From: Perna viridis
Taxonomy: Eukaryota
DNA length: 64,000 nt
Reading direction: 5' to 3'
NCBI GenBank assembly: GCA_037379345.1
Contig: CM074512.1
Location: forward strand, 16,988,001-17,052,000
Under the pieces are notes generated by a model. It was not told the origin of the DNA. It did not search any database and saw nothing but the letters and a program-made list of their open reading frames with translations. A program made the position numbers and the translations under genes. Shown here one piece after another: positions 37,001 through 50,563 of this stretch (the first letter of the stretch is position 1; the number at the start of each line of letters is the position of its first letter).

Positions 37001-38167
37001 ACCCAATACAATTAAAAGAGATGTTTCTTCAACCTTATAAAAATACTGGTGACAAGATAGACGTATCTGATATTCACAAGCACTTCATACAAAATACGCA
37101 ACAGTTTCTACAATGACCCTTGAATTCCTGTCTTCGTTTTTCATTGTCATAATTTTGTTTGATGTCCGTTTAAAATTTCATAAGGAAATGAACACCCTTG
37201 GAGTAAAATATCCCGTTATTATAGATCTTGGCACCCTAACTAAAAAGGTAATTGTCTGAGATATTTAACAGTATTGTTATTAAGTCCAATTACCTAACTG
37301 TTACCTTTAATTTTTTTTTCATTTCATGATAGTTATATTTAAAAATATACTATGTATTATATACCTGGTGTATAGGATATATCCTATGAATAACTGAACC
37401 ATTTTAATACTTATTGCTTTGATCTCTAAGAAAAGCAAAGACACCTTATATAAATAAACATGATATTTAGACACCTTTGCAATAGGTAAAGAGATATTTT
37501 GCAGATAAAAAAAATAAACATTTTATAAGCAAATTTAAAGTTTAAAAAGATTAAAATTTACAATTAGAACACACAAAAAAATGGCTTGTGCTTACAAAGG
37601 GAATTCTCATGAGCAGTCAGGCAATCTGTAGATCAATTCAATTTAGTTTAATGATGATATATAAACATTGAAGCTGTATGATCTACTGAGCTTCCATCTC
37701 CAAGTAGCCATATATATAGTGCAGAAAACTTAAAAACACATTATCAGAGAGTGCATCAACTATAGAACTATTGGAGCGCACCATTGAGATAACCAGGTAA
37801 TCAGTTAAACAGCTGTGTTCACACCTGTCTGTGGTGTCTTAGTCATATACACACTATTTTGGAACCACTTTTCCAAGATTTCATTTATTCTAAATCACAC
37901 GTTAGAACCATGTAAAAACTTTGTCAAGATCAACAGGCTCATATTCATAAAAACCAAGTGTTTACAGGCAATGAAGATAACATTGATGATGACAGCACTG
38001 TAGCATTATAAGATCACAAATATTTGCAATTGTATAAAATCATGCTACAACTGAAAAGGATGAAATACCCAACAGCTGGTATCAATTTTTACAAGTACAA
38101 AACTATTAAAATCAAACCATTCCAATAATTTCTAACTAAAAAGTGTATAAAAATGTTATATACAAAC

Positions 38168-38361
38168 CTAGCGTATGTATTGGGAGGTTTGATTCCTGAC
38201 TTGGGTCCTTCATTCTGGGCCTGTTGTATAAATTGGACCATAGACAGAGCCTCCTGTTTAAGGTAATGAGTACTGGCATCACATGTTGGACAGTGACCAT
38301 TAGTCAGGGCCTTGTTATCTGCTATCTGTAATCTCTCACTGATCTTCTCAATGTCAAGATT
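38168..38361 (-). CDS. KIF26: KIF26-like kinesin, coding exon B (second CxxC-LKQEA motif)
   Basis: Acceptor ttatcacag|AAT and donor AG|gtttgt; 194 nt, phase 0/2. Translates NLDIEKISERLQIAD...HCPTCDASTHYLKQEALSMV...NTYA, resembling KIF26 C..C.T.L..LKQEA..MV. Confidence 0.85.
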
Positions 38362-39281
38362 CTGTGATAAAATACACATCATTTTTAAAACAATCATTTC
38401 AGTCAAACTTATTGAGTATAAGTGATAATAGACAAACCTATCACACTCAGGATCTGGAATAAGACATAAAGCAGCAAGAACAACAACAATCAACCCAAAC
38501 AATTAATCTAAAAACATCAGTGGAAACCAGAAATACTGCGAGCACTCTCAAAATAGAGCTGTGCTTATAAGAGATGTGGACAGCAAATGAACAGATGAAG
38601 ACCGACACATTGATTTCTATATCCTCCAAAAAAATCTGCAGTGGTAAAAAAAAAAATCCAAGTGCAACATCAAATCACTTCATTTCCACAATAACTTTAT
38701 GATGTCTGAGATCTTATAAGGCAATGAAGAAACAATTTTTGACTTGGATGTTCAAATAATTCACTTTTGTTGTTTTTTTTTTATTTGGTTTTGTTTTCGC
38801 ATTAAAATATAACAAACAGTCATCAAGATAGTTGTGATGCTGTAACAGTCGTGATTAGACATGGTCAGAATTCTATAAACACTGTCATATACTGGAGCAT
38901 GTCCTTTCAACATTAAATACTGACCAATATTTCAAAAATGTTAAAGACTTTCACATAGTATGTAATATATCAAGTGTGAACTGCTTATTCTAACTACTCC
39001 ACCTTATTTGCATTTGTAATGAGCTTATAACTGATCATAATAACAAACTAACGATTAAACTAGGAAAATTATCCCCTGACCATGGTTAAAAATATAATTG
39101 TATTGAGTAAAGTCATTAGTATTCAATAAAAAAGGTAACAGTAAAGTAGATCTTAACCTTCCCAAGGTGTTGGCACTTTACACTAAATTATTCTTCAAGT
39201 CTTCAACTTATTCAACATGGTCATAGCAATAGGACTCTATTCGGTCAAATTTCATTGAGTGACTGAGTGAGTGAGTGAGTA

Positions 39282-45400: not shown

Positions 45401-45850
45401 TAAAGAGTTCACTGACAGTATTATTATTATAAGCACACTCAGTGACTGGTGAATTGCAAAGTAGCCCAATCAATGACCATTAAGGTCCACCTAATGTGAA
45501 CCAATTTACTTAGGCTGATTTAAAAAAAAATTATTGCAGGTGCAGCAGTTACAATATGAGTTGATGAAATGAACTGTGTACAGAATGTCATTTTCCCATT
45601 TGAACCATAAATTAATGCACATCTTTGTACTATCACAACAAACAGACAGAAAGACTAATAGACATAGTGGATCAACTGGACAAGCACACTGGTGTTTCAG
45701 GGCCCTCATTTAAAACATACTCATACATGAACTTTTTTTAAATCAACCACTTATTATTTTAGTACCATTTCAAAAAATATTGCAATGTCAAATTTGCCAA
45801 ATTAAAAAAAATATATCTATTTTTCACTTTAAAATTTCTTATTTCTAAGG

Positions 45851-46187
45851 CCCCGTGCAGGTCCGGGTGTCAAAAGAATAGGCCTGCAGCAGCGCTAAGC
45901 CTGTCGTAAAAGGCGACTAAATAGTGCTCAGAACCCTAGCTGGGGGCTAGGGCACTCTGCCCACAGAGCAACTGGGATGTGTGCCCCAGGTGGTGGAATG
46001 GAGTACCCCTGGTGTGTTACATGCTGGGGTTGTCAGGCTATAATACGGAAAACCTGACCACAAACCATAGTGGTGAACCGTGTTGGGAAAGATGCCACGT
46101 TCCTCGCACGTTAAAGAACCCTACTGTGGTATTCTTCCGGAGTAGGAACCATAAGGCTCTGCCACTGTCAACTAAAGCAGAAAAAAA
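45851..46187 (+). mobile_element. GC-rich structured non-autonomous retroposon-like element (RTE-type 5' head plus Nin/Deu-SINE-core-like motif)
   Basis: Abrupt GC/CpG-rich island with many self-complementary stems. The head cccgtgcaggtccggg...aatagg...gtcgtaaaaggcgactaaa recalls 5' ends of RTE-type retroposons. gcacgttaaagaaccc (46106-46121) recalls the Nin/Deu SINE central domain. A-rich end. Confidence 0.6.
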
Positions 46188-46257: not shown

Positions 46258-46700
46258 TATGCTCAAGACTTGAACCTCTAAACCGGCAATAAGTTTATGG
46301 CTCAAATTTCTAATATTAGACAGTGCTCAAGTTTCAAATTTTAATTTATGCTCAAGTCTTTAGCCTATAAACTGAGACAATGCTCAAGTCTGTTGCCTCC
46401 GAACAAAATCTTAGTGCAAGTTTTTAGACTTTTAAAGGAAACAGCTCTAGTCTTTAGTCTCTTATGTGAGTTTATGCAAGTCTAAAGTCTCATAAAAGAG
46501 GCTGTGATCAACTTTCAAACTAAGATTTTACTGTAGTCAAGTCTAAGACTACTGAGATTTACCCAAAACTGAACGTGTGCTTAAGTCTCACTTAACTGTC
46601 TTTGCTCAAGTATCAAGTCTCTACGATAAACCTTTCATTAAGATTTTGCTCAATTCTCAGAATGTAGGATATCCTAAAGTCTCAGGTCTTAAAAGGAGAA
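46258..46700. repeat. Highly degenerate ~30-bp periodic array (tgctcaagtct core)
   Basis: About 14 recurrences of a tgctcaagtct-like core, spaced ~25-44 nt apart. Confidence 0.6.
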
Positions 46701-48085: not shown

Positions 48086-49755
48086 AGACCCCATGTAACA
48101 AGTACAAGTGTATACAAACATTTTGCAGCTGAATAAAAAGACCATCTTAATTTATATTTTAGAACAGTATTTAAAATGAATGCAATAATCAGCACTTTTT
48201 TTGGATAAAGCATCTGGTCATATTAATATTTTGGGAAAAAAATACTTCCCATCTGAAGGATTCTTGGAAAGTGTACAAAATATTAAACAAGAATAGTATA
48301 AAAATCATCATACATGTAAAACTGACATAAATTTGACCCTTCAGATCCAAGGGAACCATTAAATTGTACAATGCATCAGAGACAAAAACGAATGGTTCTT
48401 AAAGCTAATTACAGAAAAACCTTCAGAGGATTCCTTATTATCTGTAAATAGTCATTACACATATGCAACAATAAACAAAAATGTTCTCGTAAATCTGACA
48501 GGAGAATTATAGGTTAGCAGCGCTGATGGTTACAAACCCTAGATTTCTAGGCGATAAAATAAATGAAGGAATAGAGCAGAACTGATGTATGGCTATACTA
48601 CTGATTATGGGGAGAAATGAGCAGTAATTTGATCAAGCATACTCCAATGTCAAATTTGTCCTGCCTATATAAGCACATTCAACATCGGAAACGTCTTAAT
48701 GGACAAAAAACTTTGTGAGTCACACGGATGTAAAAATTGTAATTGAATTGGGTGAAACGCAACAATTGTTTGTCAAGATGATAGTAATCAAGTTAAGCTT
48801 GTGTGATATTAGACACAGATCTAAATAGCCCTTACACTTATCTTGTTATCTCAATGTCAACCATTATTTGTTGGAGATTGAGCCAATTTGAAATCAATGT
48901 GCAACAAGAGGAGGCTTCCTAGATGTTCACTTCCTTTAATTACTGTATTACAGCTAACATAATAAAACTTAATCAGTCACAATCAACAAGGCAATTGTCA
49001 ACTAAGAAGGAGCTATCTGTCATCATTTGGCTCACAAAGGAAGGTTTGGCCTCAAAGTAAGAAAACAGGCAGACAGACTGGATAATTCATATATATGTAT
49101 TAATATAACTTGTCTTTCAAATAATAATACTATAAATCCTTCTAATCCACAGACAAATAAATTCACCTGTTGTTATGGTGTAATAAGAATTCAAACTTTA
49201 CTAAGATTATAAATTGTCCTATGCATAATGCATCAAAGTGTTATTAGGTCTTTTACAGTTCTTTTTTTTTCTTATTCAAATTTGCACAATTAAAACATCA
49301 CATGCAGATAATTTACACAGCAAGGGTATGCAACTTTTCAATAATACTATTGTTAAGGGCAACTTACTGCAAATTTTATTTCATTCAATTTAATTTAATG
49401 ACTAAATGTGAATAATTTAGGTTAAATTGCATGAAATTAAGTCTTTCACAGACAAATAAGACTTATCAGGTTGTTTAGCAACTCAATGTAAAGTCATGTT
49501 CTGTAATCAAAGCCTAGGTCTCCTCTGAACTTTCACAGACATATAAATCTAAAATTTGCAATTTTAGTGGAGAAGTAAATTGTAATAAAGTATACTTGTA
49601 TCAGGACAGCAGTCAGCTATAATCAATAGGTAAAGCAGAGAAACAGATATAAATTATAACTAAGACAAACAAACCCATATTTGAAACTCTTAATACTAAG
49701 ACAAACTACTTAAAGTCAACGATTTTGACCTAAGAAATATAAATACAATAGTTAC

Positions 49756-50241
49756 CTTATTGGATGAGGATTTCTCCACATTCATTAATCTAACAGCTTG
49801 ACGTTTCAAGTCAATGAGGCAGTTATTACACTGATCACAAATCCCTGCATTTCTAGTGTAAACCCCTGGCTTAGTGCTCCGACTTCCAGGAGGAACATAT
49901 TTGGGAGGCTTCCCATACACATTCCTTCTGTTGGTATCTGGTGTTTTGTGATCTGGAAGAGATTTACTTGGTTGGACATCAATATCAGGTGATGTGGGTC
50001 GGCCAAAAACAAAAGATTGTTGATTTACGGTCTGATCAGACAACGGAGAAATGGTTCCTCTGATTGGATAATCCATCATACCATTCTTTCCTATAATATT
50101 TTGTGACATTTCATTTTTTGAAGCTGTATCGAGTAGCTGTAGTGGTTTTTTGGGAGTCGGAAGTTTTCGTATTTTGGCTTGTCCTACAGATTTGTACTGA
50201 GTAGGCACTACACTAACACTTGAAGCATAGTTTTCTTCTTT
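49756..50241 (-). CDS. KIF26: KIF26-like kinesin, coding exon A (most 5' exon resolved; N-terminal region with first CxxC-LKRQA motif)
   Basis: Acceptor tttttgcag|AAA and donor AAG|gtaact; 486 nt, phase 0/0. Translates KEENYASS...GICDQCNNCLIDLKRQAVRLMNVEKSSSNK, resembling the KIF26 N-terminal C..C...L.ELKRQA motif. Confidence 0.85.
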
Positions 50242-50563
50242 CTGCAAAAATAAAAAAATTCTCATAAAAGTTTTCTAAGTGGTTGAATTGTAGGATATAG
50301 TTTATTCACAGTTCAAATTTTAAAATGATATTGAAATATTTCTTACTGATGATAGAGTTACTATCTCTGTAGTTGGCATAAGTCTAACAAATGAACATTG
50401 TCTTCAGAAGTGGTCAGTGCATCCCTGCAAAAATGGCTTCGAATTTCACCATTGTTTCAGACAGATAAAATTCCACTAAAACTAATATATCTACAACAGG
50501 ATATTCCTCTTGAAATTATCTGTCCATACACAGGATCTCCCATGAAAACTATAAAGGTAATTA

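Follow-up and report, generated by a model that had tools for sequence, protein, structure and literature searches.

The window, that is, the whole stretch of 64,000 nucleotides that was analysed, carries on its forward strand a 3′-truncated copy of an LP-type (non-tRNA) SINE (45850..46165), whose 5′ end is G45850. The full length of the family is about 520 nt; the window copy breaks off near 46165 and has lost the tail (about 200 nt) and the duplication. A tRNA gene search found no tRNA gene at the copy, and a 12-nt stretch of its body (46106..46117, forward strand) matches as text the Lottia_Nin row among the Nin-domain rows of PMC4758252. Just 3′ of the truncated SINE, degenerate repeats of about 30-32 nt with a GCTCAAGT-like core occupy 46261-46680. 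On the minus strand, exon-like frames with a common C-x2-C motif are present at 49696-50274 and 38089-38502, and one minus-strand exon-like frame gives a weak KIF26A/B tri-helical match (E 0.05). These frames probably belong to a host gene surrounding the SINE and, because they lie on both sides of it, the copy is probably an antisense intronic leftover.

The 78-nt head of the element (45851..45928) is a knotted RNA fold. Its first helix, P1 (45852-55 with 45864-67), closes an 8-nt loop. Within this stretch (45852..45867), U45856 constitutes L1, a loop of 1 nt, and the rest of the loop is the first strand of P2, a 7-bp pseudoknot helix (45857-63 with 45881-87). The linker after P1 (45868..45880) ends in a conserved AGAAUA (45875-80), and docking of the linker into the minor groove of P1 is predicted; its length differs among families and is about 60 nt greater in one. 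This longer linker between P1 and AGAAUA, with TAAG repeats, was seen in L069, L087, L152, and L162, and most of the P2 pairing is kept there. P3, a helix of 3-4 bp (45888-90 with 45899-901), follows directly after P2. The invariant core (45902..45920) consists of a U, the hairpin P5 (45903-06 with 45914-17) with its 7-nt loop, and then UAA. The last helix, P4 (45891-97 with 45922-28), is optional; it forms a second pseudoknot with P3 and is variable, being weak or absent in some viruses. All these elements are read on the forward strand, and their order is therefore the P1/P2 pseudoknot, P3, the P5 hairpin, the UAA strand, and P4 where it exists.

A preliminary description, made from the letters alone, had placed P1, the complementarity of P2, the pairing 45891-97/45922-28, the hairpin 45903-17, and the linker 45918-21, all of which are present. 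It had also paired the loop 45856-63 with 45881-88 over eight positions. Seven of these pairs stand, and the eighth, U45856-A45888, is not supported, since A45888 covaries with 45901 as part of P3. In the window copy itself, a C at 45901 breaks this first P3 pair (A-C), and T is found at the same position in 85 of 89 family copies.

Evidence for the fold from its relatives

Single-sequence folding gives z -1.7 against shuffles with a nested-only tool that has pseudoknots outside its model, and such folding is weak overall (z +0.8 to -2.3). As the single-sequence fold is only modestly above shuffles, the case for structure rests on relatives. A search with a 17-letter core yielded at least 122 metagenome stretches, 25 matches in prokaryote genomes (596 Gb), and 9 in viral contigs. 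The matches listed comprise 250 non-redundant occurrences, 198 of them with the upstream GAAU anchor, which fall into 29 clusters. Relaxed scans of viral sequences returned 35, 73, 67, and 21 stretches, none of them a new member. In scoring with a model of the motif, 100 loci from relaxed scans reach at most 28.7 bits, most intact members outside model building reach at least 41, and the held-out L074 reaches 35.

Covariation was evaluated in two sets. The first takes one medoid from each of the 29 clusters, without leaving out decayed ones, and was subjected to a fixed-register test. The first pair of P3 is Watson-Crick in 21 of 29 medoids and takes all four types, as compared to 7.7 ± 2.4 after shuffling (0 of 20,000 shuffles). 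The second pair is Watson-Crick in 22 of 29 (10.9 shuffled) and the fourth in 18 of 27 (7.7 shuffled). The third pair, which is C-G or U-G, has no covariation in the 29 medoids and is uninformative, and the registers adjoining P3 fail the same fixed-register test. P2 scores 5.66 in a swap test, versus 4.74 ± 0.12 (0 of 5,000), and P4 gives a weaker result of 4.05 versus 3.64 ± 0.10 (p 0.0004).

The second set is a sequence-only MAFFT alignment of 20 heads hand-picked as intact. In this set, 85.6% of cells pair versus 71.4 ± 1.3% after shuffling, slid controls giving 35-46%, and the covariation score is 0.416 versus 0.176. The count of pairs changed on both sides is not significant in these 20 heads (49 of 500 shuffles). 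By helix, all 7 pairs of P2 are changed on both sides in the aligned set; P1 is paired in 88% of cells, with little covariation and mostly conserved C-G, and P4 is 61.5% paired. The core is unchanged except for one purine in all 20 aligned rows, a constancy that is partly built in, the core being the search seed. When two near-duplicate rows are removed, the first P3 pair comes out highest among 2,915 column pairs, and each of the seven pairs with the largest Watson-Crick excess belongs to the predicted fold. Against 150 family-wise shuffles, only the top P3 pair exceeds all and the second passes the 95th percentile, in statistics that ignore shared ancestry among metagenome families.

The knotted fold is thus real, and the covariation sets its two pseudoknots in series, not nested. 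The check that the preliminary description had suggested, namely covariation across copies, was applied here to relatives; among the helices proposed there it supports P2 and, more weakly, P4, and it adds P3, which that description had missed.

The head on SINEs, on LINEs, and in viral genomes

The genome, which measures 723 Mb, contains 8,107 exact matches to an 18-letter core and none to its reversed control. A query of 201 bases gave 2,027 candidates with a sharp left edge near 45850 (40 scored). Full SINE copies are about 520 nt long and their 3′ end consists of CAAA-type repeats. The tail is present in 63 of 95 SINE heads, and a TSD of 8-18 bp accompanies 39 of those 63; in 22 of the 39, exactly 'GC' separates the TSD from the P1 strand. 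The first base lies 2 nt 5′ of the CCCG strand in three SINE families, and its purine is family-specific (G in 73/95, A in 17/24, and G in 15/18). With thousands of genomic copies, TSDs, and this fixed 5′ end, in addition to the covariation across relatives, the claim that a structured RNA heads a retroposon is borne out. At L185-L188 (G000:C1:9834484-9839014), copies of the SINE also follow one another head to tail, repeating every 504 bases. No further family was found in this genome, as the fetched loci with variant cores all belong to the same SINE (30 of 134, 30 of 325, and 9 of 9 fetched).

The absence of a tRNA head, the variable TSDs, and the 3′ tandem repeats are the traits of LP-SINEs. 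LP was described by Matetovici et al. 2016 (PMC4758252) as a 5′ domain of about 70 bp in mollusc SINEs and in Nimb-17_LMi, I-3_DR, and RTE-9_CPB, standing in place of a tRNA head or ahead of one. By eye, the finding matches the scallop 'Nimb-17 homology' rows, and the Fig. S2 rows of the pectinoid MESC SINEs share the core, the loop, and the linker and allow P1-P5. As DNA, the finding is the published LP domain. Unlike the present account, the covered parts of PMC4758252 give no secondary structure for the domain and leave viruses unmentioned. In the literature searched, LP terms occur in PMC4758252 alone; exact core strings of 13-14 letters are absent from the main texts searched, and no structure for the domain was found in print, within a search that had subscription papers and Ruminski 2011 (PMC3308841) outside its range. 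The structure and the viral occurrence are new relative to this literature.

The same head is also found on LINEs of the Nimb type. One in G001 starts with the fold and encodes a zinc-knuckle ORF1 (weak match) and an endonuclease-RT-RNase H ORF2; G002 contains a partial one, also headed by the fold. In both, the fold directly precedes a conserved UTR block. These two LINEs sit in bacterial assemblies and most likely are host carry-over. Together with LP on Nimb-17_LMi, I-3_DR, and RTE-9_CPB, they show that the motif recurs on other non-LTR elements, as the preliminary description had suggested for RTE-type ones. The closest LINE family in this genome has 69% RT identity and the same UTR block behind a different structured head, and heads are therefore swappable modules.

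G000 contains an intact Nimb/I-type LINE family of about 6.07 kb with an ORF2 of 1,247 aa (L464:847-6912 and about 130 scored relatives). In the head of this family, a C-run/G-run helix encloses a hairpin of 5 bp whose loop is 8 nt, and another 5-bp helix is present; by eye the head follows an HDV-like strand order without P4. It has no Rfam match and is a candidate for a second 5′-end RNA. None of the 12 Nimb-type LINE loci fetched here has an LP head of its own and their tail is unlike that of the SINE; the partner LINE of the SINE was not found among the Nimb-type LINE loci fetched from this genome.

Of the 25 core matches in prokaryotes, 8 score at least 41 bits. They look like eukaryotic carry-over, with symbiont bins, contig ends, LINE ORFs, and a microsatellite among their settings. 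A phage search gave no match, and a plasmid search gave one chance match of 26 nt. A retroposon family of about 230 nt with an LP-type head and a CCA/CAA-repeat tail was seen at L221:96-340, at L233 (contig end), and at L133; its L221 copy has a 9-bp duplication. In two bacterial MAGs the family neighbours bacterial genes and is separated from a contig end by less than 160 nt. These bacterial copies are probably due to chimeric assembly, and less likely to a real insertion into bacteria. At L231:1946-3130 and in L218, the head is followed by a further stretch that we take to be an RTE 5′ UTR, with a long GAA repeat as well in L231; the element is possibly a short RTE-derived SINE.

Among viruses, the full fold is present in seven of the nine core matches, and the remaining two, one of which is a phage sequence, have the core only. 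Six contigs represent, by their proteins, five RNA-virus lineages: L239 with RdRP_4/RdRP_1, L241 and L243 with RdRP_3, L237/L242 with a Peptidase_A21 capsid, and L236, RdRp-like by atlas features. The motif is in sense in all five and follows the last stop codon found at a distance of 6-101 nt, with 27-119 nt remaining to the end of the contig; the L236 and L243 contigs may be incomplete, and the label of 3′ UTR is uncertain there. L236 has two tandem copies of the motif with a compensatory P2 change from A-U to G-C. One DNA virus also carries the full motif. In its AT-rich contig of 212 kb, the motif is intergenic (L238:1950-2029), about 150 nt before an ORF; an NAD-dependent ligase lies two ORFs upstream of the motif, and a retroposon body is absent.

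The sense fold after the last ORF found in five RNA-virus lineages implies conservation at the RNA level, for which a promoter alone is insufficient. LP, or 'LINE promoter', was given its name on the guess that it serves as a promoter, and PMC4758252 notes the parallel with Pr77, both promoter and ribozyme. On this account, the head would be an internal Pol II promoter at the DNA level (Matetovici 2016), and the RNA fold would be secondary or have a second role, as in trypanosome Pr77. The domain does replace the Pol III head in LP-SINEs, with a purine first and a fixed start (PMC4758252). The excess of TSDs ending in G (about 12 of 39, above the expectation from genome base content) could moreover reflect cap-derived microhomology. 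Nevertheless, an extra G outside the TSD exists in 1 of 39 copies, SINE family A shows no excess of G before its A start (6 of 24), and neither the compensatory pairing nor the presence in RNA viruses is accounted for. A promoter role as the main explanation seems very unlikely.

The long invariant loop with its flanks, the placement behind the final stop codon in RNA viruses, and the one about 150 nt before an ORF in L238 would suit a binding site. The ligand could be a host protein or the ribosome, in cap-independent translation or stability, or the element's own protein, and the 5′ end would be set otherwise. A conserved core of 17 nt is a feature of known 3′ translation enhancers, and several of the RNA-virus lineages with the motif are presumably uncapped. 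Such a site leaves unexplained the retention of the motif by non-coding SINEs, its ability to stand in for a tRNA head (PMC4758252, section 10), and the coincidence of element boundaries with the 5′ edge of the fold. As it fails on the fixed 5′ boundary, a translational or protein-binding role is unlikely to be the primary one.

The origin of the 5′ end

The behaviour of transcripts at the 5′ junction was considered in one raw RNA-seq run, of which 19% was read; it is a standard library, in which 5′ ends are poorly captured, and its strandedness is assumed. SINE coverage in this run is about 2:1 toward the presumed sense strand, and no pile of molecule starts is found in it at +1. Depth at the 5′ edge is about 572, and 504 reads continue there into unlike flank; of about 363 presumed-sense reads, at least about 295 carry the upstream flank uncut. 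The sense drop at the edge is slightly steeper but not significant (p=0.09), and trimmed RNAs therefore make up no more than a small minority in this run. The reads count against efficient cleavage in host transcripts, and trimmed ends were also not seen.

This observation weighs against a new class of self-cleaving ribozyme, whose core would lie wholly 3′ of the cut and which would free the element from read-through transcripts. Such a ribozyme would produce a precise 5′ end at a constant distance from the fold, as is seen here. A C-N-A-A strand, like the HDV J4/2 strand, precedes the last helix in 19 of 20 rows, where it is part of the search seed. The LP head is interchangeable with the head of a related LINE that has HDV-like order when threaded by eye. 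According to PMC5786205, six LINE clades bear 5′ ribozymes, and according to PMC13725137 linear RNA viruses, toti- and tombus-like ones among them, carry ribozymes in their UTRs. HDV-like ribozymes (R2, RTE, Ingi, and L1Tc/Pr77) are indeed similar to the LP fold in size (about 77 nt), in marking an exact non-LTR 5′ end, in being swappable among clades, in having two pseudoknots, and in placing C-N-A-A between the hairpin and the last helix. They differ from it in architecture, since LP P1 closes just an 8-nt loop and not P2/P3/L3, and its pseudoknots are serial, not the nested double pseudoknot of HDV. A motif like the HDV L3 occurs in 2 of 20 rows, and the core motifs of hammerhead, twister, and pistol occur in 0, 1, and 0 of 20. 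The misfit to HDV, pistol, twister, and hammerhead that had been reported from hand-threading is thereby upheld. The suggestion that the motif might already be catalogued in Rfam is not, as cmscan (E<=10) gave no meaningful match, ribozyme families included, at the finding or in 14 related loci.

A ribozyme would fit the RNA-level conservation and the fixed boundary of the SINE, yet in the viruses it would part the genes from the 3′ terminus; a hammerhead in a chrysovirus 3′ UTR is called exceptional in PMC13725137. No base or pair at the putative cut site, moreover, is conserved in the viral copies, and P1 ranges from 3 to 5 bp. With the uncut presumed-sense reads added, under the assumption of a stranded library, self-cleavage seems rather unlikely as the function of the head, but the ribozymes known in viral UTRs and at LINE 5′ ends keep it a serious rival.

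Three facts call for one cause, namely conservation at the RNA level, a SINE 5′ boundary that is fixed without a Pol III head, and a viral site after the last gene. A block to 5′-3′ exonucleases fits all three; a DNA promoter fails on the first and on the viral placement. The reading that we prefer, at a probability of about 0.4, is that the double-pseudoknot head with its invariant hairpin, common to SINEs, Nimb-type LINEs, and RNA-virus 3′ regions, may act as an xrRNA-like block to XRN1/XRN2. The retroposon would be transcribed within a longer host read-through RNA, the upstream portion of which would be degraded 5′ to 3′. The enzyme would stall about 6 nt before L1, leaving a protected and uniformly trimmed template, and the protein of a Nimb/I-type LINE would copy it by target-primed reverse transcription. 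The block would thus do for the SINE what HDV-like ribozymes do for R2 and RTE. In viruses, the same stall would give rise to a non-coding 3′ subgenomic RNA. Being passive, such a block is compatible with sense transcripts that mostly cross the junction intact.

Viral xrRNAs offer a parallel. Flaviviral xrRNAs are positioned at the start of the 3′ UTR (PMC11702639), and tandem xrRNAs have been described (PMC13556198). The flaviviral classes 1a, 1b, and 2, plant-virus class 3, and coremin (PMC11702639, PMC8374639, and PMC10520033) resemble the LP fold in being compact, pseudoknotted (the LP fold has one pseudoknot or more), in sense at the start of the viral 3′ region, as in all five RNA lineages here, and tandem in one virus. 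A related effect has been reported for R2 templates, where a stable HDV-like 5′ fold raises insertion and is related by the authors to 5′-end degradation (PMC11331408).

The differences from xrRNAs are also considerable. The LP fold has no three-way junction and, by the descriptions of these classes, differs from all of them in strand order and sequence; the coremin sequence is not matched. The LP fold, unlike xrRNAs, has an invariant core and heads cellular retroposons. The hallmark of an xrRNA is a ring of 15-16 nt around the 5′ end (PMC8374639), and the linker after P1 appears too variable to form one, which argues against a block. Against it, too, is the failure of ordinary frameshifting H-type pseudoknots to stall Xrn1 (PMC10321173). 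An invariant core of 17-19 nt is unusual for sequence-variable xrRNAs and looks like a catalytic or protein-binding site. The absence of a start pile at +1 and the missing partner LINE count on the same side. Taken as a structure, the fold is outside every ribozyme and xrRNA class compared.

Beyond the choice between an exonuclease block and self-cleavage, it appears fairly probable that the LP head is an undescribed class of RNA fold, exchanged between RNA viruses and several non-LTR clades, which itself creates a defined RNA 5′ end and lets the SINE dispense with a Pol III promoter. It would then be either the first xrRNA of cellular mobile elements, xrRNAs in eukaryotic genomes being treated as still to be found in the covered part of PMC8374639, or a new ribozyme class. 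If XRN1 resistance or self-cleavage is true, either one defines a new RNA class. The finding bears on how a precise, full-length 5′ end is obtained by many LINEs and by SINEs that have no tRNA head, and the common fold suggests that viruses and retrotransposons have exchanged RNA modules. RNA-templated gene insertion, in which 5′ decay appears to be limiting, could also profit from a compact module that guards the 5′ end.
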